In this document: positions 49,923 to 61,370 of the stretch, in pieces
Position numbering within the stretch: position 1 is the stretch's first letter
How the letters are laid out: each line of letters starts with the position of its first letter
Assembly (NCBI GenBank): GCA_035713725.1
Contig: DASTMZ010000008.1
Location: forward strand, 8,280 to 72,279
Origin: Micromonosporaceae bacterium
Lineage (GTDB): Bacteria > Actinomycetota > Actinomycetes > Mycobacteriales > Micromonosporaceae
Reading direction: 5' to 3'
Length of the DNA stretch: 64,000 nucleotides
Notes under the pieces: generated by a model
What the model was told of the DNA's origin: nothing
The model's input: only the letters and a program-made list of their open reading frames with translations
Database searches by the model: none
Translations under genes and position numbers: made by a program

Positions 49923-50777
49923 TTATCTCGGCCGCTCACTGACGCGGTACCGCAGGAATAGGAAGCCGTCGCTGGCGGCGAGGACGCTCGCGACCTCGAG
50001 ATCGCGCACCGTGCTGACCGGCCCGGCAGTGATGCGACCCGCGCCCGGGCCGAGAAGGCGTGGCGACACGGTCAGGCACAATTCGTCGACCGCGTCCGCG
50101 GCGGTCAGCGCACCGAGCACATGCGGGCCGCCTTCACACAGCACATGTGGGTACCCAGCATCGACGAGCGCGGCGCGCGCGGCGCGGAAGTCGATCGCCT
50201 CGCGCCCGCAGACGACCACCTCGGCAACCTCGCTGAGTGCCTTACGTCGACCGGCCGGAGCGCCGTCATGGGTCAACACGAACGGTCGGACCGGTGCCTC
50301 GCGGAACATCGGGTGCGCTGGGTCGAGATCAAGCCGTCCGGATATCACGACGAGCGCGGGTTGTGGTTCGCGACCACTTCGCCGTCGCAACTCCCGATGA
50401 CGATCGTCGACCGTCATGGCGCCGTACCCCTCGATGCGCAACGTTCCGGCGCCCACCATGACCGCGTCGCACTGCACCCGCAGCAGGTCGAAGATGCGCT
50501 TGTCGGCCGGCCCGCCGAGACCGCCCGACTTTCCGTCGGCGGTGACGGCACCGTCGACGCTCGCGACGAAGTTCGCCCGCATCAACGGTTCGTCACCGAC
50601 CGGGTACGCACGGAGCAACGCGTCGTCGTCGAGCGGCTGGGTGTCCGGACTCGGCCAGACGGCGCGCACCTCCGGTGATGGCTCCGGAGTCGATGGCGCC
50701 GGGGTGGATGGCTCCGTTTCTGGCACGGTTTCGAGCCTCGCACACCCGGGCTCGCGCGGCGTGCCGAACGGCCGCAT
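49923..50777 (-). CDS. RibD C-terminal-domain (pyrimidine/dihydrofolate reductase-like) family protein
   Basis: MRANFVASVDGAVTADGKSGGLGGPADKRIFDLLRVQCDAVMVGAGTLR...LCEGGPHVLGAL. Start is uncertain, but the 13 bp non-triplet repeat at 50821 argues that coding starts at or below 50777. Confidence 0.75.
   Translation of the reverse strand: MRPFGTPREPGCARLETVPETEPSTPAPSTPEPSPEVRAVWPSPDTQPLDDDALLRAYPVGDEPLMRANFVASVDGAVTADGKSGGLGGPADKRIFDLLRVQCDAVMVGAGTLRIEGYGAMTVDDRHRELRRRSGREPQPALVVISGRLDLDPAHPMFREAPVRPFVLTHDGAPAGRRKALSEVAEVVVCGREAIDFRAARAALVDAGYPHVLCEGGPHVLGALTAADAVDELCLTVSPRLLGPGAGRITAGPVSTVRDLEVASVLAASDGFLFLRYRVSERPR
50674..50718 (-). repeat. 15 bp tandem repeat x3 in the reductase 5' tail (EPSTP APSTP EPSPE)
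   Basis: ggtgatggctccgga gtcgatggcgccggg gtggatggctccgtt on the plus strand. Confidence 0.8.
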
Positions 50778-50820
50778 CCGCGGGTGCTTCGGCGCGCGTC
50801 GAGTGCGTTGGTCGTGCGGA

Positions 50821-50859
50821 TCGATGGTTCGGATCGATGGTTCGGATCGAGGGTGCGGC
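50821..50859. repeat. 13 bp tandem repeat x3
   Basis: tcgatggttcgga tcgatggttcgga tcgagggtgcggc. Confidence 0.85.
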
Positions 50860-50964
50860 GGTGTAGAGCTGAGGTTGTCGGGGGATGGCGATAGCGTCAC
50901 GACGTTGGTGCGGGCGGCCGTATTCGTCACGGGGCTGTGTCTCGGGATGGGCCGCAGCGTGCTA

Positions 50965-51080
50965 TGAACCATGGCTTTTGTTGAACCACAGCTTGCTATG
51001 AACTACGGCTTGCGTTTGAACCACGGCTTGCGTTTGAACCACAGCTTGCTTTTGAACCACGGCTTGCGTTGAACCACAAC
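50965..51080. repeat. 17-18 bp tandem repeat x7 (TGAACCACRGCTTGCKTT), relatively AT-rich, in the divergent intergenic region
   Basis: TGAACC/TGAACT recurs at 50965, 50982, 50999, 51017, 51035, 51053 and 51070. The array ends 44 bp before the DUF885 ATG. Confidence 0.92.
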
Positions 51081-51123: not shown

Positions 51124-52842
51124 ATGGGGAGTGGCATGAGTGCGGTGAACGACCTCGCGGACGAGATGCTCGATGCAATATTCGACGCATACCCAGCGAT
51201 CGCCACGCTGTTGGGATTCGCCGGACCGCGCGATCGACTCCTCACTGACCATCGCGAGTCCGCCGAGCAAGCTATGGATGCGCGGGTCGCGGCAATCGGC
51301 GCCCGCGCGGCCGCGCTCGATCCGGCCGACCTGATGCCCGACGAGCGGGTCACCCGTGCCGTCGTCATGCGACAGTCCGACGACCTGCGGGCCGGTTGGC
51401 AAGGCCATCTGACCGAGTTCTCCATCTGCGACTCGTTCACCGCGCCCGCGGCGGACATCTTGTTCACGCTGCCGATGATCACGATCTCCACGGCCGAGCA
51501 GGCCGATGCGTATGTCGACCGGCTCGCGGCCATTCCGCGCACGCTCGAGGCGCTGGCCGACCGGCATCGGGCGGGCATCGCGGCCGGCCGCGTTCCGGTG
51601 CGGCATCTCGTCGAGGCGGCCGCCGATCACGTCGACCGCTATCTGGCCAACCGCGACGACCCGCTGGCCAAACCGACGCCCGCCGATCATGCCGGAGTGA
51701 CCGGCGGTCCTATGGACGTTCCTGCGTTCCACGCACGCCGTGACGAGGTGCTGCGTACGGCGGTCCGACCGGCGTTCGCGGCCTACCGCGACGTGCTCCG
51801 CAATGAAGTCGCACCGCACGGTCGCGATCGGGAGCATCCCGGGCTGACGTGGCTGCCGGGCGGCGACGAGATCTACGCGCGGATGATCGCGATGCACACC
51901 ACGACCGGGCGCACCGCGGACGAGATCCACCAGACCGGTCTCGACGTGATCGCCCGGCTCGCGGACGAATATCGCGAGGTCGGCGGCCGCGTGTTCGGCA
52001 CGACCGATCTCGCCGAGATCTTCGAACGGTTGCGGACGGATCCGGCGCTGCGGTGGCGCGACGGCGATGAGTTGCTCGAGGCGGCGCGGGCCGCGGTCGC
52101 CCGTGCCGATGCGGCCGCGCCCGCGTGGTTCGGCCGGCTGCCAAGCCAGGGGTGCGAAGTGCGCGCCGTTCCCGACGACGAGGCGCCCGGCGCCGCGGGT
52201 GCGTATTACACCCAGCCGGCCATGGACGGCAGCCGGCCGGGCATCTACTTCGCCAACACGTACGAAGCGACGGAACGCGACCGGACGCAGTGCGAGTCGA
52301 CCGCGTTCCACGAGGCGATCCCGGGTCACCACTTCCAGACCACGATTGCGATGGAGCTGGCCGACCTGCCGATGTTGCGTCGGCTCGCGCCGTTCACGGC
52401 GTACGGCGAGGGGTGGGGCCTCTACTGCGAGCGGCTGGCGCACGAGATGGGGCTCTACTCGGACGACATCGCGTTGCTCGGGATGCTCAGCACCGACTCG
52501 CTGCGGGCGGCGCGTCTCGTGGTTGATACCGGCATGCATGCGAAGGGTTGGAGTCGCGAGCAAGCGGTGCGTTACATGATGGAGCAGACGCCAGTCATGC
52601 CGCTGGAGATCGAGAGTGAGATCGACCGGTACATCGCCACGCCCGGCCAGGCATTGGCGTACATGATCGGTCGACTGGAGATCCAGCGGATCCGTGCCGA
52701 GGCGGAGCGCGCACTCGGGTCGGCGTTCGACATCCGCGGCTTCCACGACACCGTGCTAGGCAGCGGCGCGTTGCCACTGAGCGTGCTCGCCGAGGTCGTC
52801 GACGCGTGGGTGGCACTACGCACCGCAGAGCCATCCGTGTAA
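51124..52842 (+). CDS. DUF885-family protein (putative metallopeptidase-like)
   Basis: 572 aa. The C-terminal region with [11 protein letters not shown] (HExxH-like context), [12 protein letters not shown] and [16 protein letters not shown] is typical of DUF885. An alternative ATG is at 51136. Confidence 0.8.
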
Positions 52843-52893
52843 CTAGTCCGTGTAACTAGGTCCGCGTCACCAGGTCCGCGTCAGTAGGTCCGC
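52837..52893. repeat. 13-14 bp tandem repeat x4 that begins on the DUF885 stop codon
   Basis: gtgTAActagtcc gtgTAActaggtccgc gtcaccaggtccgc gtcagtaggtccgc. The stop TAA at 52840-52842 is duplicated in unit 2. Confidence 0.88.
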
Positions 52894-52921
52894 GCATCGG
52901 AGCGCAACATCGGCGTCGCGC

Positions 52922-52952
52922 AACCTTGGCGTCTCGAAACCTTGGCGTCTCG
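52922..52952. repeat. 16 bp tandem duplication
   Basis: aaccttggcgtctcg a aaccttggcgtctcg. Confidence 0.88.
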
Positions 52953-53006
52953 ACACGCGGTGCCGACCGCGTCTCTACGCGGCCCGTCAACGCGTCGACA
53001 GGGCGT

Positions 53007-53093
53007 AGCGACCCGATACCGTGCAGCGACCCGATACCGTGCAGCGTCCCGATGCGGCGCATCGTCCCGATACCCCATCCCCGATACCCCATC
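53007..53093. repeat. Composite array of 5 units with a CCCGATRC core (period 18, 18, 18, 14)
   Basis: agcgacccgataccgtgc x2, agcgtcccgatgcggcgc, atcgtcccgataccccat, ccccgataccccatc. Confidence 0.88.
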
Positions 53094-53438
53094 GACGCGT
53101 CTCCACACGGCACTGTCAAGGCGTTCACACAGCGTCGACAGCCACTCGACACGGCAGTGTCACATGGTCCGAGACGGCGCTCGGCAGCGCCCTGATGCGA
53201 CGACGGACAATGGCTCGGCCCGAGCTCTCCGGACGTCAGATACGCGGCGTAGTCCCAAGTAGACGGGCTGCGGTCGTCGTTACCGAGCCGTAATGGCGGC
53301 CTTGTTGATCTGTACCTTGTATACAGGATACGTTCGGGTTCCGGAACGGACCGGGAGGACCCGATGCCGCGTAAATTCCCAACCCCTCGACTCGATAACC
53401 CCCAACTCCATTTGCTTGAGCCGGGTCAGGGCACCCGG

Positions 53439-55070
53439 ATGACCCGAGGCGGGACCTTTAGAAGCCGGGCGATCAGAAGCATTGTCGTTCTCGCGACCCT
53501 TACCCTCGCGATGGCCGGATGCAGCTCCATTTCCTCGGGGTCAGGCAACTCCTCGTCCAACAACAACAAGGCAGCCAAGGCGGGCGGCACGCTCACCGTC
53601 GCGCTTGCGGGCGAGCCGGACGCGCTCGACCCGACCACCGGCCGTACGCTGGTCGGCCGCAGCGTCTTTACGTCTATTTGCGAGAAGCTCTACGACGTCG
53701 ACAGCAAGCTCGCGGTCGTGCCGCAGCTCGCGGCATCGTTGCCACAGTTCTCTTCGGACGGACTGACCGTCACGATCAAGCTGCGCTCCGGCGTCAAGTT
53801 CGCCGACGGCACGCCGATGGATGCCACCGCGGTCAAGACGAGCCTCGACCGTGATATGACATTGCCCGGCTCCGCGCGCCAGAGCGAACTCACCAGCATC
53901 GACAATGTGTCGGTGGCCGACCCGACCACCGTGACCATCAAGCTCAAGCAGCCGTTCACGCCGTTGACCGCGATCCTGGCCGACCGCGCCGGCATGGTGA
54001 TGTCGCCGACCGCGCTGCAGTCCGAGGGCGCGAACTTTGGCGAGCACCCGGTCTGCGTCGGCCCGTTCAAGTTCTCCACTCGCGTCGCGCAGGACCGCAT
54101 TGAGGTCGTCAAGGACCCGAACTACTACGACGCCAGCAAGGTCCTGCTGGACAAGATCGTTTACAAGATCATTGCCGACCCGGAGACCCGGTTCAACAAC
54201 TTGCAGTCCGGTGACGTCCAGGTGCTCGACACCGTGGCGGCCACCGATGTCGACGCGTTGAAAGCGGACTCGAAGCTCGAGTTGCTGAGCTCCGACTCGC
54301 TCGGCTATCAGGGCATCACGATCAACATCGGAAATGTCGACGGCGTCGGCAAGCCCGGTCGGGCGCTGCCAGCGAAGTTGGCCAGCCCGATGTCGGCGAA
54401 CGCTCAGGTGCGCCAGGCGTTCGAGCTGAGCCTCGACCGCGACGCGATCAACAAGGTCGTGTTCCGCGGTGAGTTCAGCCCGGCTTGTGGACCGATCAGC
54501 CCGGCGAGCCCATTCTCCACTCCGGAAGCTCAGGTGTGCCCGAAGCACGACCCGACCGCGGCGAAGGCGCTGTTGGCCTCGGCCGGCGTTTCGACGCCGG
54601 TGAAGGTCAGCATGATCATTGGCAACACGCCGGATGCGGAGCGATTGGGCCAGGCGATTCAGGCACAGGTGAAGGACGGCGGCTTCGACCTTCAGCTGGT
54701 GCCGGTCGAGTTCGCGGCATCGTTGGACCAGACCGACGCCGGTCAGTACCAGCTGTTCCAGATCGGTTGGTCGGGCCGCGTCGACCCGGACGGCAACATT
54801 GCGAACTTCGTCAGCACGCTCGGCTCGCAGAACAACGACGGCTACACCAACCCGTCCGTTGACACGCTGCTCGAGCAGGCGCGGTCGCAAGCCGATGTGG
54901 CCGCGCGCGCGAAGATCTACGGCCAGGTGATCACTCAGCTGCACCAGGACGTACCGATCATCTACCTGTACCGGCAGAAGAACTTCACCGGTGTTTCCCG
55001 CACGGTCGTGGGGGTTCAGGTGTTCGGCGACGGCCTGCTCCGATTCAAGACCGCGGGCTTCGCGGCCTGA
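53439..55070 (+). CDS. Peptide/nickel-type ABC transporter substrate-binding lipoprotein (family 5, DppA/OppA/GsiB-like)
   Basis: Signal peptide with lipobox AMAGC and family-5 SBP pattern (GGTLTVALAGEPDALDP..., LVPQLA, DPNYYD, GWSGRVDPDGN). The ORF-track start is 53364. Confidence 0.88.
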   Translation: MTRGGTFRSRAIRSIVVLATLTLAMAGCSSISSGSGNSSSNNNKAAKAGGTLTVALAGEPDALDPTTGRTLVGRSVFTSICEKLYDVDSKLAVVPQLAASLPQFSSDGLTVTIKLRSGVKFADGTPMDATAVKTSLDRDMTLPGSARQSELTSIDNVSVADPTTVTIKLKQPFTPLTAILADRAGMVMSPTALQSEGANFGEHPVCVGPFKFSTRVAQDRIEVVKDPNYYDASKVLLDKIVYKIIADPETRFNNLQSGDVQVLDTVAATDVDALKADSKLELLSSDSLGYQGITINIGNVDGVGKPGRALPAKLASPMSANAQVRQAFELSLDRDAINKVVFRGEFSPACGPISPASPFSTPEAQVCPKHDPTAAKALLASAGVSTPVKVSMIIGNTPDAERLGQAIQAQVKDGGFDLQLVPVEFAASLDQTDAGQYQLFQIGWSGRVDPDGNIANFVSTLGSQNNDGYTNPSVDTLLEQARSQADVAARAKIYGQVITQLHQDVPIIYLYRQKNFTGVSRTVVGVQVFGDGLLRFKTAGFAA

Positions 55071-55085
55071 TCGCATCGCCGGGGT

Positions 55086-55116
55086 GGTGGTCGCGAGCCC
55101 CGGGCTCGCGACCACC
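55086..55116 (+). terminator. Perfect 15 bp-arm palindrome after the binding-protein gene (attenuator/terminator hairpin)
   Basis: GGTGGTCGCGAGCCC c GGGCTCGCGACCACC, 16 bp after the stop. No T-tract follows. Confidence 0.5.
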
Positions 55117-55178
55117 ATCGGTTAGCTGGCAGATCGGTTAGCTGGCAGATCGGTCGCTGGCAGATCGGTCGCTGATAG
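55117..55178. repeat. 15-16 bp tandem repeat x4 between the binding-protein and permease genes
   Basis: atcggttagctggcag x2, atcggtcgctggcag, atcggtcgctgatag. It immediately follows the hairpin. Confidence 0.92.
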
Positions 55179-55217
55179 CACGGCTCGTGAACGAGGTGGG
55201 GGTCGGAGAGGAGGCCG

Positions 55218-56174
55218 ATGGGCCGGTACGTGCTGCGTCGCCTCCTCGAGTCGGCGGTCACGTTCGTTCTTGTGACGATCGTGGTGTTCGTCGGTGTCCG
55301 CGCACTGCCCGGCGACCCGGCGCGAGCGCTTGCCGGCGAGGAGAGTGATCCGGCGTCGCTGGCACAGATCCGCAAGTCCTTCGGGCTCGACGAGCCGATT
55401 CCGCTGCAGTACGTCCACTATGTCGGCAACGCGCTGCACGGCGATCTCGGCCGGTCGTCGCGCACCGGGCTGCCGGTTGCTACCACGATTCGCCAGGCGC
55501 TGCCGGTCACGTTGCAACTGGCTATCTTCGCCGTTGTCATCGCGGCGCTGATCGGGCTCATCGCCGGTGTGGTTGCCGCCGTACGCCGGCGCAGCGCGGC
55601 CGAGTGGGCGGCGAACAGTGTGGCGTTGCTTGGCCTGTCCGTACCGAGCTTCTGGTTCGGGCTGATGGCGGTGCTAGTGTTCGCGATCGCGTACCCGATC
55701 CTGCCGGCATCCGGCTTCGTGTCGGTGTTCTCCGATCCGTGGCAGAGCTTCCGCCATTTGCTGATGCCGGCCGTGGTGCTCGGTTCCGCCCTCGCCGCCG
55801 TCATCATGCGGCAGACCAGGTCCGCGATGATCGAGGCGATGAGTACGGACTACATCCGGACCGCTCGGGCCAAGGGTCTCGGCGGCCGGCAGGTCATCTT
55901 CGGGCACGCGTTGCGCAACAGCCTGATCGTGGTCACAACGATCGTCGGTCTGCAGCTTGGCGCGCTGATCTCCGGTGCCGTGGTCACCGAGCAGATCTTC
56001 GTCCTACCCGGTTTCGGCAAGCTCACCATCGACGCCGTGTTCACGCGTGACTACCCGATGATCCAGGGCGTCGTACTCGTGACCGCGACCGCCTACATCG
56101 GCATCAACCTGCTCGTCGATCTGCTGTATAGCGTGATCGACCCGCGTGTCCGGGTGGGCGGTGCTGCGGTGTGA
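55218..56174 (+). CDS. Peptide ABC transporter permease (DppB/OppB type)
   Basis: MGRYVLRRLLESAVTFVLVTIVVF N-terminus and an EAA-like loop (DYIRTARAKGLGGRQVIFGHALRNSL). GAGGAGG RBS. Confidence 0.9.
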   Translation: MGRYVLRRLLESAVTFVLVTIVVFVGVRALPGDPARALAGEESDPASLAQIRKSFGLDEPIPLQYVHYVGNALHGDLGRSSRTGLPVATTIRQALPVTLQLAIFAVVIAALIGLIAGVVAAVRRRSAAEWAANSVALLGLSVPSFWFGLMAVLVFAIAYPILPASGFVSVFSDPWQSFRHLLMPAVVLGSALAAVIMRQTRSAMIEAMSTDYIRTARAKGLGGRQVIFGHALRNSLIVVTTIVGLQLGALISGAVVTEQIFVLPGFGKLTIDAVFTRDYPMIQGVVLVTATAYIGINLLVDLLYSVIDPRVRVGGAAV

Positions 56175-57061
56175 CGACCTTCGAACTTGTGACGCTCGAC
56201 GAGACCGCGGCCCGTCCGCAGGCCCTCGGTGGTCGGCGGGTGCTGCGCCGTCTGAGGCGCAACCCACTCGCGCTGGCCGGCCTTATCGTCGTCGTGGTCG
56301 CGGTCATCCTGGCGATCTTCGCGAATCAGATCGCACCGTTCGCGCCGGATCACACGAACTTCTCGGCTGCGCTGACACCGCCGTCTGCGAGGCACTGGTT
56401 CGGCACCGACGAGCTCGGTCGCGACCAGCTGTCCCGGGTGTTGTTCGGCCTGCGCGTCTCGCTGTCGGTCGCGGCGCTGTCGGTGGCGCTGTCGCTGGTC
56501 GTCGGCGTGCCACTCGGGCTGGCCGCGGGGTTCTACGGATTCCTCGACCCGCTCGTGTCGCGGGTCGCGGACACGCTGCTCGCATTCCCGTTCCTCATCC
56601 TCGCGGTCGGGCTCGCCGCGATTCTTGGCCCGTCGCTCGGTACGGCAACCATCGCGATCGGCGTCGGCAACGTACCCGCGATCATCCGCATCACGCGCAG
56701 CGAAGCATTGCGTCTGAGAGGCCTGGACTTCGTGGCGGCCGCGGTCGCGGACGGCGCGAGCGACTTTGTCGTGCTGCGACGCCACATCCTGCCCAACGCG
56801 GTGAACACACTGATCGTGCAGGCAACCGTGGCGGCACCGGCGGCGATCATCGGCGAGGCCGTACTGTCGTTCCTCGGTCTCGGCATCCGGCCGCCGAATC
56901 CGTCGCTCGGTGTGATGCTCGCCAGCGCGCAACCGTTGTTCCGTGACGGCCCTTGGCTCGCCGTGCTGCCCGGCATCTGCATCGTTATCGTCACGCTCGG
57001 CCTGAATCTGTTGGGCGATGGGCTGCGCGACGCCCTCGATCCGCGGGAGTCGCCGCGATGA
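56171..57061 (+). CDS. Peptide ABC transporter permease (DppC/OppC type)
   Basis: HWFGTDELGRDQLSRV motif and an EAA-like loop (DFVAAAVADGASDFVVLRRHILPNAV). Overlaps the upstream stop. Confidence 0.9.
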   Translation: MTTFELVTLDETAARPQALGGRRVLRRLRRNPLALAGLIVVVVAVILAIFANQIAPFAPDHTNFSAALTPPSARHWFGTDELGRDQLSRVLFGLRVSLSVAALSVALSLVVGVPLGLAAGFYGFLDPLVSRVADTLLAFPFLILAVGLAAILGPSLGTATIAIGVGNVPAIIRITRSEALRLRGLDFVAAAVADGASDFVVLRRHILPNAVNTLIVQATVAAPAAIIGEAVLSFLGLGIRPPNPSLGVMLASAQPLFRDGPWLAVLPGICIVIVTLGLNLLGDGLRDALDPRESPR

Positions 57062-58212
57062 CCGCCGGCAACGGAGTGCCCGAGCAATCGGCTCGAGACT
57101 GGACCATCGAGAGCGTGCCGTCCGTGGAGAGCGTGCCGTCCGCGGAAAGCGTGCCGTCCGCGGAAAGCGTGCCGTCCGTCGGGCGCGTGCCGTCTGTGGA
57201 GAGCGTGCCGTCGAGCCTGTCCGGGCGCGAGACATTACTCTCGGTACGGGACCTGTCAGTGCGGTTCCGGACCGAAGACGGTCCGGTGCTCGCCGTCGAC
57301 GCGGTGTCCTTCGACGTCGGTCAACGAGAGGTGCTTGCGTTGGTCGGCGAGTCGGGCTGCGGCAAGAGCGTGACGGCGATGGCGCTCACACGTCTGCTGC
57401 CGAGCAACGCCAACATCTCCGGTGCGGTGAAGCTCGGCAGCCGATCGTTGCTCGATCTGTCCGAGCCGGACCTTCGGGACGTACGCGGTAAAGACATCGC
57501 GTACGTCTTCCAGGAGCCGATGACGTCACTGAACCCGGTGCTCACCGTCGGGCGTCAGATCGGCGAGGTGCTGCGTCGACACCAGCAGATGCGCGGAGCG
57601 GCGGTGATTCGTCGGGCTACCGAACTGCTGGACCTGGTCGGGATCCCGCTGCCGGACCGTCGCGTACGGGAATATCCACACCAGCTGTCCGGCGGCATGC
57701 GGCAGCGCGTGATGATCGCGATGGCGGTCGCGTGCCGACCGAAGCTGCTGGTCGCAGACGAGCCGACCACCGCCCTCGACGTGACCGTACAGGCGGGCAT
57801 CCTCGACGTCCTGCGTGATCTGCGCGCCGAGATCGGCACGGCGGTGCTGCTCATCACGCACGACCTGGGAGTCGTTGCCGACCTCGCGGATCGCGTCGTG
57901 GTCATGTACGCCGGCCGCACCATCGAGGAGGCCGGCACCGACGTGTTGTTCGCCCGCCACAGCCATCCGTACACCCGCGGGCTGCTGGAGGCCGTGCCGA
58001 ACCCACAGCGACGCGCAGACGGTGGCCTGCGGGAGATCCCTGGTCGCGTGCCGACCATGCGCAACTCGCCGGCCGCGTGCACATTCGCGGCACGGTGCGA
58101 GTTCGCCGACGAGCAATGCAGTCGCGAACGGCCGGCGTTGCTGCCCGGACCGGCCGGCCATCCGGTGCGCTGCTTCCATCCGTTGCCGGCGACCGCGGAA
58201 GCCCTGACATGA
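57058..58212 (+). CDS. Peptide ABC transporter ATP-binding protein (DppD/OppD type) with a repeat-bearing N-terminal leader
   Basis: Walker A GESGCGKSV, signature LSGGMRQRVMIAMAV, Walker B LLVADEPTTALD and an oligopeptide C-terminal domain (HPYTRGLL). ATGA overlap with the permease. The repeat frame has GC at every third position, which supports translation. Confidence 0.88.
   Translation: MTAGNGVPEQSARDWTIESVPSVESVPSAESVPSAESVPSVGRVPSVESVPSSLSGRETLLSVRDLSVRFRTEDGPVLAVDAVSFDVGQREVLALVGESGCGKSVTAMALTRLLPSNANISGAVKLGSRSLLDLSEPDLRDVRGKDIAYVFQEPMTSLNPVLTVGRQIGEVLRRHQQMRGAAVIRRATELLDLVGIPLPDRRVREYPHQLSGGMRQRVMIAMAVACRPKLLVADEPTTALDVTVQAGILDVLRDLRAEIGTAVLLITHDLGVVADLADRVVVMYAGRTIEEAGTDVLFARHSHPYTRGLLEAVPNPQRRADGGLREIPGRVPTMRNSPAACTFAARCEFADEQCSRERPALLPGPAGHPVRCFHPLPATAEALT
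57106..57213 (+). repeat. 18 bp tandem repeat x6 in the dppD-like 5' region (ESVPSV ESVPSA ESVPSA ESVPSV GRVPSV ESVPSS)
   Basis: atcgagagcgtgccgtcc gtggagagcgtgccgtcc gcggaaagcgtgccgtcc x2 gtcgggcgcgtgccgtct gtggagagcgtgccgtcg. Confidence 0.92.
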
Positions 58213-58298
58213 GCGGCCGTGACATGAGTGGCACTGACATGAGTGGCCGTGACATGAGTGGCACTGACATGAGTGGCACTGACATGAACGGCCGTGAA
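58209..58298 (+). repeat. 15 bp tandem repeat x6, each unit beginning with an in-frame ATG (MSGRD MSGTD MSGRD MSGTD MSGTD MNGRE)
   Basis: atgagcggccgtgac atgagtggcactgac atgagtggccgtgac atgagtggcactgac atgagtggcactgac atgaacggccgtgaa. Unit 1 carries the ATGA stop/start overlap. Confidence 0.95.
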
Positions 58299-59267
58299 GC
58301 GAAGACCGTGCTTGAGGTCGTCGACCTCGTCAAACACTTCGGTCCGGTGCGAGCCGTGGACGGCGTCAGCCTGACCGTCGCGGAGGGCGAGGTGGTCGGC
58401 CTCGTGGGGGAGTCCGGCAGCGGCAAGAGCACGCTCGGCCGCTGCGTGACGCGGCTCGTCCCGGTCACCGCCGGAGAAGTGCACATCAACGGTACGGACA
58501 TCTCCCGCCTCAGCCGTCACCGCCTGCGGCCGTTGCGCCGTGACTTCAACATCGTGTTCCAGGATCCGGCGTCGTCGTTGAATCCGCGGATGACGGTCGG
58601 CGACATCATCTCGGAGCCGTTGCGGCTGCACCGGGTCGGCACGCGCGTGACGCAGGAGCAGCGCGTCACGGAGCTGCTCGACCAGGTCGGCCTGCAGGCA
58701 GAGGTGTCGCGTCGGTATCCCCACGAGCTGTCTGGTGGGCAACGTCAGCGGGTGAGCCTCGCTCGGGCACTCTCGGCCGGGCCATCGCTGCTGGTGGCCG
58801 ACGAGCCGACGTCGGCGCTGGACGTCTCGGTGCAGGCCGCCGTGCTGAACCTGATCGGTCGATTGCAAGCCGACCTCGGCTTCGCGTGCCTGTTCGTGAC
58901 GCACGACCTTGCCGCTGTCGAATTTCTCGCACAACGCGTAGCCGTGATGTATCTCGGCGTACTCGTCGAGGTCGCCGACCGTGAGGCGCTGTTCGCGGCG
59001 CCGCGGCATCCGTACACTCAGGCGTTGTTGTCGGCGGCGCCGATTCCGGACCCGGTGGTTCAGCGCGGCCGTCAGCGGATTGTGCTGTCCGGCGAGGTAC
59101 CCAGCCCGATCGACCCGCCGTCCGGTTGCCGCTTCCACCCGCGGTGCCCCGTCGCGGTACCGGAGTGTGCAACCGTTGTTCCGGCCTTGCGCCCGGTCGG
59201 ACCGTCTGGTGAACTCGTCGCCTGCCACCTTGTGAACGACGACGGGACCGGCCCACGGCTAACCTAG
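58209..59267 (+). CDS. Peptide ABC transporter ATP-binding protein (DppF/OppF type) with a repeat-bearing N-terminal leader
   Basis: Walker A GESGSGKST, signature LSGGQRQRVSLARAL, Walker [25 protein letters not shown] overlap with the upstream gene. The true start may be any of six in-frame ATGs. Confidence 0.88.
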   Translation: MSGRDMSGTDMSGRDMSGTDMSGTDMNGREAKTVLEVVDLVKHFGPVRAVDGVSLTVAEGEVVGLVGESGSGKSTLGRCVTRLVPVTAGEVHINGTDISRLSRHRLRPLRRDFNIVFQDPASSLNPRMTVGDIISEPLRLHRVGTRVTQEQRVTELLDQVGLQAEVSRRYPHELSGGQRQRVSLARALSAGPSLLVADEPTSALDVSVQAAVLNLIGRLQADLGFACLFVTHDLAAVEFLAQRVAVMYLGVLVEVADREALFAAPRHPYTQALLSAAPIPDPVVQRGRQRIVLSGEVPSPIDPPSGCRFHPRCPVAVPECATVVPALRPVGPSGELVACHLVNDDGTGPRLT

Positions 59268-59294
59268 ACGACTGCGGGGTGATCGACCGTGGGC

Positions 59295-59370
59295 GATCGA
59301 TGGTGTGTGCTGGATCGTGGTGTGTGCTGGATCGTGGTGTTGGCTGGATCGCGGGGTTGAGCTGGATCGG
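59295..59370. repeat. 17-18 bp tandem repeat, about 4.5 copies (GGATCGTGGTGTGTGCT core), downstream of the dppF-like gene
   Basis: GGATCG recurs at 59312, 59329, 59346 and 59364, with a degenerate first copy at 59295. Confidence 0.88.
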
Positions 59371-59427
59371 CTAGCGGGCAGCATCGCAGGCCATGCCGGA
59401 CAGCCGGGGCTGGCGGGTGTGGGGAAC

Positions 59428-59500
59428 ATGGGCCGTGGGTGTATGGGCCGTGGGTATGTGAGCCGTGGGTATGTGAGCCGTGGGTATATGAGCCGTGGGA
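59428..59500. repeat. 13-15 bp tandem repeat x5 (ATGKGMGCCGTGGGT) just upstream of ggt
   Basis: atgggccgtgggtgt atgggccgtgggt atgtgagccgtgggt atgtgagccgtgggt atatgagccgtggga. It ends 5 bp before the GAGGAG RBS of ggt. Confidence 0.92.
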
Positions 59501-59519
59501 AATTGAGGAGAGCGAACCG

Positions 59520-61370
59520 ATGAACCCGACCAGACCGCAGCTAGCGGGGACGTTCGGAATGGTCGCATCGTCGCACTGGTTGGCGTCCGCGGCCGGCATG
59601 GCGGAACTTGAGCAGGGCGGCAACGCGTTCGACGCGGTCGTCGCAGCCGGGTTCACCCTTCAGGTCGTCGAGCCGCATCTGAACGGTCCGGGCGGAGAGG
59701 TGCCGATCATCTTCGCGCGGTCCGACGATGACGCGCCGACCGTGCTATGTGGGCAGGGTCCGGCGCCGAGCGGCGCGACCATCGCGCACTACCGCGACCT
59801 CGGCCTCGAGCTGATCCCCGGCGCCGGCCCGCTTGCGGCCGCGGTTCCCGGCGCGGTCGAGGCGTGGCTCACGTTATTGCGCGATCACGGTACGCGGCGG
59901 CTCGCGGACGTACTCGCGTATGCGATCTCGTATGCAGACCGCGGTCATCCACTGCTGCCACGCGCCGCCGGCGCGATCAACCAGGTCGCGAAGTTGTTCG
60001 CGAACGACTGGACGACGTCGGCCGAAGTGTTCCTGGCCGGTGACGCGGCACCCGGCCCCGGCACGCTGTTCCGCAATCCTGCGCTAGCCGAGACGTACCG
60101 GCGTCTGGTCGCGGCCGAGACAGCGGCGAGCGGCGGTCGCGAGGCGGGCATCGACGCGGCCCGACGGGCATGGCGCGAGGGCTTCGTCGCGGAGGCGGTC
60201 GACGCGTTCGCCCAACGCCCGTTCCGGCACCCGCACGGCGGGCACCACACCGCCGTGATCGGTGGCGCCGATCTGGCCGCGTTCACCGCCGAATACGAAG
60301 CGACGACGTCGCACCCGTTCAGGGATGTGGTCGTACACAAGACGTCCGGTTGGGGACAAGGCCCGGTTCTGTTGCAACAGCTCGCGATGCTGGACGGGTA
60401 CGACGACGCGGCGATAGATCCGAGTACGCCGGACGGCGTGCACGTCGCGGTCGAGGTAACCAAGCTCTCGTTCGCTGACCGTGACGCGTGGTACGGCGAC
60501 GCCGTACCGCCGCCTCTGCACGCCTTGCTGGACAAGGGGTATACGGAATCGCGCCGTGCTCTCGTCGGAGACGACGCGAGCCTCGTACTCCGTCCCGGCG
60601 CACCCGACGGACAATCGCCGCGTCTGCCCGCGCTGCTTGCGCACATGCTCAATGCCCCGAACCCCTCCGAGGCAGCCCCCGATCCGGCGGTCACTGAGCC
60701 AGCCGAACGTCCGACGCCCGAGGCTGCGGTCCCGACGCAGGGGACACTCGGCGAGCCGACCGTGGAGCGCGACGGTATTGCGCGCGGCGACACGTGCCAT
60801 GTCGACGTCGTCGACCGCTGGGGCAACATCGTGTCCGCGACACCGAGCGGCGGTTGGTTGCAGAGCTCGCCGGTGATTCCGCCGTTGGGCTTCCCGCTGG
60901 GTACGCGTCTGCAGATGTGTTGGCTCGAGGAGGGACTGCCGGCGAGCCTGACGCCTGGCCGGCGGCCGCGCACCACGCTCAGCCCGACGATGATCTACCG
61001 TGACGGGCGGCCAGCGATCGCCTGCGGTACGCCCGGCGGCGACCAACAAGATCAGTGGCAGCTCGTGTTCCTGTTGTCGCATCTGGTTCGCAGACTGCCG
61101 CTCCAGGCCGCCATCGAGGCGCCGAGTTGGCATAGCAACGCGGTGGCAAGCTCCTTCTTCCCACGGGACTCGCGGCCCGGCGAACTCGTCATGGAGGGTC
61201 GATGGGGCGGTCCCGCCGTGGACGCGCTGCGGCGCCGTGGACACCGTGTGGTCGTCGCGGAGCCGTGGTCCCTTGGACGCCTGGCCGCCGTGAGCCGAGA
61301 CCCGGACACCGGCCTGATGCAAGCGGCCGCGGATCCGCGCGGCCGGCAGGCGTACGCCGTCGGACGCTAG
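59520..61370 (+). CDS. ggt: Gamma-glutamyltransferase-family protein
   Basis: 616 aa. N-terminal GMVASSHWLASAAGMAELEQGGNAFDAVVAAGFTLQVVEPHLNGPGG and a nucleophile region GDTCHVDVVDRWGN (Thr). GAGGAG RBS lies 9 nt upstream. Confidence 0.88.
   Translation: MNPTRPQLAGTFGMVASSHWLASAAGMAELEQGGNAFDAVVAAGFTLQVVEPHLNGPGGEVPIIFARSDDDAPTVLCGQGPAPSGATIAHYRDLGLELIPGAGPLAAAVPGAVEAWLTLLRDHGTRRLADVLAYAISYADRGHPLLPRAAGAINQVAKLFANDWTTSAEVFLAGDAAPGPGTLFRNPALAETYRRLVAAETAASGGREAGIDAARRAWREGFVAEAVDAFAQRPFRHPHGGHHTAVIGGADLAAFTAEYEATTSHPFRDVVVHKTSGWGQGPVLLQQLAMLDGYDDAAIDPSTPDGVHVAVEVTKLSFADRDAWYGDAVPPPLHALLDKGYTESRRALVGDDASLVLRPGAPDGQSPRLPALLAHMLNAPNPSEAAPDPAVTEPAERPTPEAAVPTQGTLGEPTVERDGIARGDTCHVDVVDRWGNIVSATPSGGWLQSSPVIPPLGFPLGTRLQMCWLEEGLPASLTPGRRPRTTLSPTMIYRDGRPAIACGTPGGDQQDQWQLVFLLSHLVRRLPLQAAIEAPSWHSNAVASSFFPRDSRPGELVMEGRWGGPAVDALRRRGHRVVVAEPWSLGRLAAVSRDPDTGLMQAAADPRGRQAYAVGR

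Follow-up and report, generated by a model that had tools for sequence, protein, structure and literature searches.

The DNA window analysed here, a 64,000-nt stretch of the metagenome-assembled genome (MAG) of a soil actinobacterium of the Micromonosporaceae, contains a 521-bp spacer (52843-53363) between a DUF885 gene and a peptide ABC operon. Both flanks had been named correctly in the first-pass annotation, as Pfam assigns the upstream gene to DUF885 (E 5e-160) and the first gene of the operon to SBP_bac_5, with a permease gene coming after it. Three tandem arrays, an older duplication and a conserved block are located within or at the edge of the spacer, and the features of the locus are as follows.

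51124-52842, + strand: DUF885 gene, from the ORF list (Pfam PF05960, E 5.2e-160, residues 24-559; GC1/2/3 of 0.73/0.50/0.84)
52834-52894, no strand: array 1 (TRF period 14, 4.4 copies, 87% matches, score 73; repeat families D2/D4)
52888-52915, no strand: ancestral single-copy block GTCCGCGCATCGG-AGCGCAACATCGGCG (blastn-short, 90% identity to contig C211 of the sister species G011, E 2.4e-5)
52902-52953, no strand: array 2 (TRF 52902-52949/52912-52953, period 16, 3.0/2.6 copies, scores 68-70; family D6)
53007-53093, no strand: array 3 (TRF 53007-53074, period 18, 3.8 copies, score 94, and 53066-53093, period 14, 2.0 exact copies, score 56; families D1 and D8)
53097-53165, no strand: older diverged duplication of ~44 bp, CTC(C/G)ACACGGCA(C/G)TGTCA ... 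(families D3 and D5)
53278-53363, + strand: genus-conserved block adjoining the dppA start (alignments with G011, G003 and G008; terminator-like scan; inverted repeat I5)
53364-55070, + strand: gene for a dppA-like peptide-binding lipoprotein (SBP_bac_5), first gene of the ABC operon (Pfam PF00496, E 5e-77; N-terminal ...LAMAGC lipobox; GC3 0.86)

The three arrays that had been noticed after the DUF885 gene are real, with TRF scores of 56-94 and almost no counterparts in shuffled sequence. Across the window, 43 arrays were observed against 1-2 per 64 kb in triplet-shuffled copies, which rules out chance as their source. By TRF, the units of the three arrays measure 14-18 nt and are present in 2-4.4 copies each. 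Array 1 has a unit of 13/14 bp, TCCG(T/C)GT(A/C)A..AGG, and consists of four units and a 6-nt partial, read directly as TCCGTGTAACTAG / TCCGTGTAACTAGG / TCCGCGTCACCAGG / TCCGCGTCAGTAGG / TCCGCG. A single additional G is all that sets its units 1 and 2 apart, and TAA is present in each of them. The first TAA, in unit 1 (52840-52842), is the stop codon of the DUF885 ORF, and the second is located 13 nt further on and out of frame. The earlier description of a fourfold 13-14-bp array that starts on a stop codon and has TAA in its first two units is thus borne out by direct reading.

Array 2 had been taken for a twofold 16-bp duplication and turned out to comprise three 16-bp units, GCGCAACATCGGCGTC / GCGCAACCTTGGCGTC / TCGAAACCTTGGCGTC, followed by a partial TCGAC. 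Array 3 begins with the 18-bp unit AGCGACCCGATACCGTGC in 3.8 copies and merges into an exact 14-bp x2 duplication, CCCGATACCCCATC. Its five CCCGATRC cores are located at 53012, 53030, 53048, 53066 and 53080, with the spacings of 18, 18, 18 and 14 reported at first reading. CCCGAT is constant in five of the five units while the flanks vary; this constancy could reflect constraint, a reading to which five units give little power. Array 3 is also rich in C on its sense strand, with a GC skew of -0.31. Together the arrays occupy ~200 bp, and the claim that more than half of the spacer is tandem repeat holds for the flagged 257 bp (78%) and fails for the whole spacer (~37%). Within the older duplication downstream of array 3, the palindrome GACACGGCAGTGTC (53148-53161) is part of the second copy, and the counterpart of the duplication in the sister species has a 35-bp period. 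A likeness between an array 3 unit and the dppA start region at 53358-53380 (74% over 23 nt) was judged marginal and is better explained by descent from an older repeat of the CGACACGGCAG type within the spacer.

In the sister species G011, whose genes are 93-96% identical to those of the window, all three arrays are absent, though the two share synteny and the dpp promoter block. Instead, this species has a different, 20-bp array on the same DUF885 stop codon. Three haplotypes of the 20-bp array were found in the sister population, with 4.8 copies on one G011 contig, 2.8 copies on an overlapping contig and 4.0 copies on a metagenome contig with a TGA stop. The stop codon at this site is TAA or TGA in the sister population, and the DUF885 C-terminus reads ...PSV in the window versus ...PAA in the sister, the last two residues being different. 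The assembly of the sister MAG breaks precisely at the homologous array. Exact-protein look-ups returned no other contigs of the window's own species, and the contigs found in a metagenome scan came from the sister population or from more distant lineages only.

The block 52888-52915 runs from the last part of array 1 through unit 1 of array 2 and is unrepeated in the sister species, and the terminal partial unit of array 1 (GTCCGCG) is likewise single-copy ancestral sequence common to both species. Arrays 1 and 2 therefore grew out of sequence that was unrepeated in the ancestor. In two further genomes, G003 and G009, the orthologous DUF885 stop lies within a perfect duplication of 15 bp x2.2, GCC-TGA-TCGCGAGCT. 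Its repeat is single-copy in two other relatives (L053 and L022), with 12 nt flanked by GCC...GCC microhomology, and the duplication is an independent event. Each of three lineages thus has an array with its own unit and period on the orthologous stop (14 bp, 20 bp and 15 bp). Arrays are present there in two of ~7 other lineages versus a base rate of 3.4% (rough binomial p ~0.02), which hints at a local hotspot at the DUF885 stop beyond what neutral tolerance alone explains. Variation extends to the neighbourhood: of the 21 arrays that could be anchored at 44-64 kb of the window, 15 have a length other than that in the sister species, mostly by multiples of the period. The suggestion of a hypervariable promoter-distal spacer is supported by these neighbouring arrays and by the three copy-number alleles at the sister's homologous site.

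Conservation is located elsewhere in the spacer. Compared with the sister species, the spacer is conserved only from 53134 onward, and especially at 53225-53363, and the arrays are not alignable. Genus-wide conservation within the spacer is restricted to 53278-53375, beside the dppA start and at least 185 bp downstream of the last array, and this dppA-proximal block is supported by blastn matches in G003 and G008 (76-77% identity, query 979-1072). In the block, a hairpin at 53272-53301 precedes TTGTTGATCT, a near-palindrome of 20 bp, GTACCTTGTATACAGGATAC, is located at 53312-53331, and the ribosome-binding site GGGAGGA at 53353-53359, ahead of dppA. A scan detected terminator-like sites only at 53272-53301 and none in the arrays. 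A scan for sigma-70-type promoters, which is uninformative for actinobacterial promoters, found none in 52700-53450. The block at 53278-53363 is likely to be the dpp promoter/operator region, and we treat it as putative.

By TRF, the whole MAG contains 1,292 non-redundant arrays in 5.01 Mb (0.26/kb overall), every one of them with its own unit. Intergenic density is 0.83/kb, and the intergenic statistics carry some error, as the gene calls were home-made (86.5% coding). Array density is 1.4/kb in convergent spacers versus 0.51/kb in promoter-only divergent spacers, where it is lowest. Array coverage peaks at 5-7% at 0-60 nt past stop codons versus ~0.7% deep within genes, and 139 of the 4,033 genes have their stop codon inside an array. 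Twelve spacers contain at least three arrays, while 10.5 are expected under a length-weighted Poisson model; the presence of three arrays in one spacer hence needs no special explanation, and special clustering was dropped as a candidate. The genome-wide distribution accounts for both the clustering of the arrays and their position at the stop codon.

Among within-gene arrays, 92% have a period divisible by three, whereas intergenic periods are spread over 13-24 bp, which points to one mutational process filtered by selection. The exact young duplications of the genome (n = 361) have a period mode of 15, and duplications of <=11 nt are at chance level. The pattern extends across the family and includes a complete single-contig genome of another genus. 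Three 400-kb samples gave 0.115 (G004), 0.34 (G006) and 0.475 (G016) arrays/kb, and the controls gave 0.02/kb for Escherichia coli and 0.06/kb for C. necator pHG1. Two patterns seen at smaller scale did not persist at 400 kb. A lineage-specific preference for periods of 21-24 bp in 40-kb samples of G006 and G016 was gone, all modes being 15-21, and a very high density in one segment of G004 (0.95/kb) was local only.

Within the genome, the spacer is unique. blastn returned the self-match only, and a dispersed element or MITE was therefore dropped. Long array units had zero occurrences outside the spacer, and the counts of the unit cores elsewhere did not exceed the permuted-motif expectation (whole-genome searches); a regulon-type motif was dropped because the cores are not enriched genome-wide. 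The RNA fold of the spacer was no better than that of shuffles (z = +0.75), and Rfam gave no match at the gathering threshold in the window and none at E<=1 in 52750-53450, so that a structured RNA or riboswitch was rejected. Four spacer-crossing ORFs of 89-106 aa, considered as hidden small genes, have flat GC1/2/3 and no Pfam match and were rejected as well.

According to our analysis, the three arrays are probably neutral, locus-specific, non-coding duplications of the minisatellite type (bacterial VNTRs), an explanation in which we infer slippage, neutrality and the position of the dpp promoter. A local segment of 14-18 bp would first have been copied head to tail, with replication slippage between short direct repeats as the most likely cause, and the copy number of the array would then rise and fall while point mutations diverge the units. 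We posit that this process operates at a high rate across the Micromonosporaceae genome and family, and that arrays may persist where selection does not purge them, which in genes would be with in-frame periods only, and between genes mainly in the stretch right past the stop codon. A duplication that spans a stop leaves the protein intact because the first copy still terminates, and arrays starting on a stop codon are common as a consequence. The arrays may thus represent padding in the DUF885-dppA spacer that has no dedicated function and is positioned upstream of, and apart from, the conserved dpp control region. Since G011, G003 and G008 also have arrays ahead of the dppA promoter block, spacer length or composition may nevertheless have some effect on dpp expression.

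The first-pass annotation had also proposed an array of regulator binding sites. In this reading, the repeats would be operators through which one or several transcription factors govern the dpp-like operon or DUF885. Direct repeats between two genes, spaced at ~1.3-1.7 helical turns and with one core constant throughout array 3, are compatible with such a role. However, three unrelated motifs would require three regulators, and the same kind of array occurs ~1,300 times in the genome with a different unit each time. The proposal finds no support, because the arrays are missing in the sister species despite conserved synteny and promoter block, their motifs do not recur, arrays are biased genome-wide towards gene ends and rarest in promoter-only spacers, and conservation is confined to the dppA-proximal block; we regard it as highly improbable. 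The haplotypes of the sister population, together with the arrays that precede the dppA promoter block in G003 and G008 too, might alternatively indicate a contingency (phase/rheostat) locus, at which selected changes in copy number alter the distance or phasing of the dpp promoter or the read-through from DUF885. Known phase-variable promoter repeats have units of 1-7 nt and are located between -35 and -10 or in the 5' coding region, and differ from the arrays in both position and unit. The arrays moreover stop ~185 bp or more short of the conserved promoter-proximal block, and their periods of 14-18 bp and their positions match the genome-wide background. At intergenic densities of 0.5-1.4 arrays/kb, a 500-bp spacer is expected to contain an array ~35-50% of the time anyway, and we consider selected switching at this locus very unlikely.

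High-GC actinobacteria have few canonical U-tract terminators, and the arrays come after a stop codon, with array 3 being C-rich on the sense strand. The arrays might act as RNA in the DUF885 3' UTR, for example as a rut region, as a terminator or as the source of a small RNA. Yet the arrays of co-directional spacers show no sense-strand C excess genome-wide (mean skew +0.011, like non-array spacer DNA, p = 0.97), and a Rho rut site formed by the C-rich units was dropped on these grounds. The shuffle-like fold, the missing Rfam match, the lack of conservation and the position of the terminator-like sites outside the arrays likewise speak against an RNA function, which we find scarcely credible. 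The probability that the arrays are an artefact of short-read assembly is close to negligible. The genome is indeed a 237-contig MAG, and the break in the sister MAG falls exactly at the homologous array, but the arrays total 28-87 bp and have diverged units, and a single read is expected to span each of them. Comparable arrays are also present in independent assemblies, among them near-complete and single-contig genomes (G001, G009 and G016) and a JGI metagenome contig, and the preservation of the reading frame by 92% of the coding arrays is unlike an artefact.

The neutral duplications favoured here call for caution, as an array-packed spacer in repeat-rich, high-GC actinobacteria is no evidence of regulation, and such tandem arrays should be masked in annotation and motif discovery. 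The candidate control region of the dpp-like operon would instead be the genus-conserved block with its 20-bp palindrome. The arrays also provide a clean natural case of one mutational process under selection, being in frame in genes, of any period between genes and densest past stop codons. Duplications that span a stop are silent for the protein, yet later able to change the stop codon used and the last residues. In practical terms, arrays of this kind break short-read assemblies, such as that of the sister MAG, and they could be used as markers to type strains of uncultured Micromonosporaceae. More speculatively, Micromonosporaceae, or perhaps a wider actinobacterial group without MutS/MutL, might possess a distinctive tandem-duplication process with a preference for ~15 nt (range 12-21), which would yield one array per 1.2 kb of intergenic DNA and make gene ends true hotspots. 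We consider this unlikely at present; if true, one trans-acting property of replication or repair would remodel gene termini, spacers and protein repeats family-wide, with flap processing, the removal of primers or a polymerase prone to slippage as candidates.

Several known systems share features with the arrays. Direct-repeat operator arrays and iterons also consist of several 14-22-bp direct repeats in non-coding DNA. These are conserved among relatives, and the regulator or replicon has the motif at further sites too, whereas the arrays described here are neither conserved at the orthologous position nor recurrent in the genome. REP/BIME/REPIN elements, MIRU and the cyanobacterial STRR heptamers are non-coding and intergenic as well, often at gene ends. 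Such dispersed families, like MITEs, place the same, often hairpin-forming unit at many loci, in contrast to arrays that each have their own unit, in a unique spacer that folds like shuffled sequence. No Rfam covariance model identifies the arrays as a known structured RNA. Contingency loci of Neisseria, Haemophilus and Campylobacter resemble them in having tandem repeats near a gene boundary and fast copy-number change. In those loci, many copies of a 1-7-nt unit inside the core promoter or reading frame switch expression by copy number, unlike the few 14-18-nt units found here past a stop codon, against a genome-wide background of such arrays and at least ~185 bp upstream of the inferred promoter block.

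The closest likeness is to bacterial VNTRs and minisatellites, as used for MLVA typing and known from Mycobacterium tuberculosis, Burkholderia pseudomallei and Xanthomonas. These are head-to-tail, locus-unique units of 10-30 bp whose copy number differs among close relatives and whose within-gene units are multiples of three, and most of them, like the 'short-repeat satellites' (Subirana and Messeguer, 2019; PMC6749651), are presumed to be products of replication anomalies with no assigned function. The arrays share with them a tandem arrangement beyond chance, a locus-specific unit, copy-number variation, here seen in the sister population, and an origin from single-copy sequence. Literature searches returned no typing scheme or published description for this uncultured lineage, only general surveys. 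Reported satellite frequencies per Mb are 23.0 for B. pseudomallei chrII, 12.8-21.9 for B. mallei, 6.4 for M. bovis and 4.2 for S. coelicolor (PMC6749651). By our re-implementation of the criterion (an exact decamer at least four times in 800 nt), the genome of the window has ~15.6 per Mb and is thus within the range of the richest bacteria in that survey. Its arrays differ from such VNTRs in being very short, with 2-5 copies in 28-87 bp, and in their very high density (0.83/kb intergenic); several of them can stack in one spacer, and many straddle stop codons.

The spacer between the DUF885 gene and the dppA-like gene (52843-53363) carries three tandem repeats, which we posit are very probably neutral minisatellite-type duplications. 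The repeats and their flanking genes are as follows:

51124-52842, forward strand, DUF885 gene (Pfam E 5e-160)
52834-52894, array 1, four 13/14-bp units and a 6-nt partial unit (tandem-repeat finder, TRF, and direct reading)
52902-52953, array 2, three 16-bp units and a partial unit
53007-53093, array 3, 3.8 units of 18 bp merging into an exact 14-bp x2 duplication
3' side of the spacer, forward strand, SBP_bac_5 peptide-binding lipoprotein gene followed by ABC permeases

TRF and direct reading confirmed, in 52834-53093, the three arrays that the first-pass annotation had reported, and the Pfam matches to DUF885, SBP_bac_5 and the permeases agree with its placement of them between DUF885 and a peptide ABC operon. 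As had been claimed, the first two units of array 1 both contain a TAA; that of unit 1 is the DUF885 stop codon (52840-52842), and that of unit 2 is out of frame. Five CCCGATRC cores were likewise read in array 3, spaced 18, 18, 18 and 14 bp apart, while array 2, described as 16 bp in two copies, proved to be longer by one unit and the partial one. More than half of the DNA is indeed repeat within the flagged 257 bp (~78%), but not within the entire 521-bp spacer (~37%). The repeats are not a product of chance, because triplet-shuffled copies of the window yield 1-2 TRF arrays per 64 kb as compared with 43 in the real sequence (67 TRF rows).

In the sister species G011 (MAG SMAG_U9363), the flanking genes are 93-96% identical and the DUF885-dpp synteny is kept, and alignment of the orthologous spacer recovered none of arrays 1-3. 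An array of a 20-bp unit (CTGACTGTGGGGCTGGTCGT) begins there on the orthologous DUF885 stop codon. The G011 assembly broke at a strain-level VNTR copy-number polymorphism: the end of contig C320 (L046) and the start of contig C211 (L047) overlap by ~260 bp at this stop, differ in several SNPs and hold 4.8 and 2.8 copies of the unit, respectively. A JGI soil metagenome contig from the G011 population has 4.0 copies, and its stop codon is TGA, not TAA. Within 20 kb around the arrays, 15 of the 21 flank-anchorable arrays are longer or shorter than in G011, in most cases by whole multiples of their period. These differences, together with the three copy numbers at the homologous stop, support the earlier suggestion of a hypervariable promoter-distal spacer. 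Exact-protein look-ups and a metagenome scan found no same-species contig besides the window's own genome.

The segment 52888-52915, which links array 1's final partial unit with unit 1 of array 2, matches a single-copy stretch of G011 at 90% identity; arrays 1 and 2 therefore grew from an unrepeated ancestor or collapsed fully in G011. The 14-bp unit of the window and the 20-bp unit of G011 share only the gene-end-derived part and the stop, and may have had separate origins or come from turnover of one ancestral array. Under either origin, array change at the DUF885 stop is evidently fast. The last DUF885 residues (52831-52842) read ...EPSV* in the window and ...EPAA* in G011, with the final two differing; ~5/9 bases differ across the three final sense codons, whereas the adjoining coding sequence is 94% identical. 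Array turnover appears to remodel the extreme C-terminus of DUF885 and the choice of stop codon. The divergent spacer 5' of DUF885 (50677-51077) holds three more arrays (15 bp x2.7, 13 bp x3.2 and 18 bp x6.4), with recognisably related ones in G011 whose lengths are different by +78, -17 and -49 bp.

In two further relatives, G003 and G009, the orthologous DUF885 stop is spanned by a perfect duplication of 15 bp x2.2, GCC-TGA-TCGCGAGCT. Two other relatives have the duplicated segment only once, with the 12 nt set between two GCC triplets (GCC...GCC), the arrangement that would be expected from slippage between short direct repeats. This duplication is clearly an independent event, and we posit that slippage of this kind gives rise to the duplications in general. 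In the divergent spacer 5' of the dppA orthologue of G003 (contig C24, locus L015, 427-485), a 7-bp x8 array (CGCCGCC) precedes the conserved promoter block by ~105-160 nt. Among relatives, arrays recur near the dppA promoter, with units unrelated to each other.

The window becomes alignable with G011 again at ~53134 and matches it well from 53225 on. G003 and G008 also keep the block 53278-53375, although the upstream neighbour of dppA differs there. The features of this part of the spacer are as follows:

53097-53165, older duplication of ~44 bp, present in diverged form in G011 (35 bp there)
53272-53301, 12-pair hairpin followed by TTGTTGATCT
53312-53331, 20-bp near-palindrome, GTACCTTGTATACAGGATAC, 33-52 nt upstream of the dppA ATG
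53364, ATG with the ribosome-binding site GGGAGGA, in the conserved block

The older duplication shows that the spacer was built up through successive duplications. Within it lies the palindrome GACACGGCAGTGTC (53148-53161), which is unique in the genome and kept in G011; at ~200 nt upstream of dppA, it may be a second site of protein binding. The conserved block with its near-palindrome is the likely candidate for the operator and promoter of the dpp-like operon, which would place them at least 185 bp downstream of the last array; TTGTATACA occurs once in the genome. Over 53364-53441, the dppA-like ORF opens with the conserved ribosome-binding site and ATG (53364), yet its lipoprotein signal peptide (MTRGG...LAMAGC) starts only at Met26 (53439); the product may have a 25-residue N-terminal extension, or else this conserved ATG upstream may be that of a short leader. 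The gene order across 51124-61370, namely DUF885 (putative metallopeptidase-like), a dppA-BCDF-like peptide ABC transporter and an ORF at 59439-61370 that is presumably ggt (gamma-glutamyltransferase), is kept in G011 and not in G003 or G008, which points to recent assembly of a neighbourhood for scavenging peptides or glutathione.

The first-pass annotation had also proposed that the arrays are regulator binding sites. Their absence from G011, the distance to the conserved block and the frequency of their unit cores elsewhere in the genome, which is no higher than that of permuted motifs, all speak against this reading. Whole-genome searches found neither another occurrence of the long units nor a second copy of the spacer. 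As a structured RNA, the array region folds no better than shuffles (z = +0.75), and Rfam gave no match in the window or the array region. A terminator scan of the array region revealed no terminator-like site, nor was a coding signal detected there. The sense strand of array 3 is rich in C, which suggested a Rho-loading site; genome-wide, however, arrays in co-directional spacers show no strand skew (mean +0.011, equal to other spacer DNA).

The neutral reading is in line with the arrays of the whole genome (MAG, 5.01 Mb, 68% GC, 237 contigs), where we counted 1,292 non-redundant arrays with a TRF score of 50 or more, each with its own unit sequence. Gene statistics are based on our own simple codon-usage caller (4,585 genes, 86.5% coding). 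The period is a multiple of three in 92% of the 740 intragenic arrays, whereas the 422 intergenic ones have a broad spectrum of 13-24 bp, and density is 0.83/kb in intergenic versus ~0.17/kb in intragenic DNA, which is the expectation for one mutational process whose frameshifting products are selected against. Exact tandem duplications (n=361), which are young because they are exact, are most often of period 15 bp. The exact two-copy duplications have a sharp length preference, with 12-18 as the dominant periods and those of 11 bp or less at about the estimated chance level, and in intergenic DNA, too, the mode is 15 (14: 15, 15: 31, 16: 15). This preference for ~15 nt is mildly interesting, as a genome-wide rather than a locus-specific phenomenon. 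MutS is absent from the genome and NucS present, as is usual in actinobacteria; to our knowledge, 15-nt loops are not MutS substrates, and the absence is thus context only.

Neither the clustering of the arrays nor their position on a stop codon is special. The DUF885-dppA spacer is among 12 with at least three arrays, compared with 10.5 expected for spacers of these lengths at the array rate of intergenic DNA, and the stop codon lies within an array in 139 of 4,033 well-scored genes. Array coverage rises from ~0.7% deep inside genes to 5-7% across the first 60 nt past stop codons, and before starts it is ~4% at -60 to -100 and 1-2.5% in the last 40 nt. Convergent spacers, with two gene ends, hold 1.4 arrays/kb, co-directional ones 0.89 and divergent, promoter-only ones 0.51. 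The least constrained DNA is therefore where arrays build up, and those spanning a stop are tolerated because duplication across the codon leaves the protein unchanged. Since three different units sit on the orthologous DUF885 stop in three lineages, the question arises whether gene ends are true hotspots, which again belongs to the genome-wide phenomenon and not to this locus.

Samples of 400 kb gave 0.34 and 0.115 arrays per kb in G006 and G004 of the same genus and 0.475 in G016, a complete genome of another genus, all with period modes of 15-21 bp. Smaller samples from order-wide genomes ranged from 0.10 to 0.35/kb, with the exception of an unrepresentative 20-kb G004 segment (0.95/kb), and the controls E. 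coli K-12 and the C. necator megaplasmid (61% GC) gave 0.02/kb and 0.06/kb. Under an approximate version of the satellite criterion of Subirana and Messeguer (PMC6749651), the window's genome has ~15.6 satellites per Mb. On their list of bacteria, which spans 4-23 per Mb (PMC6749651), this lies near the top but within the known range, and arrays 1-3 are a fresh example of an already known kind of repeat.
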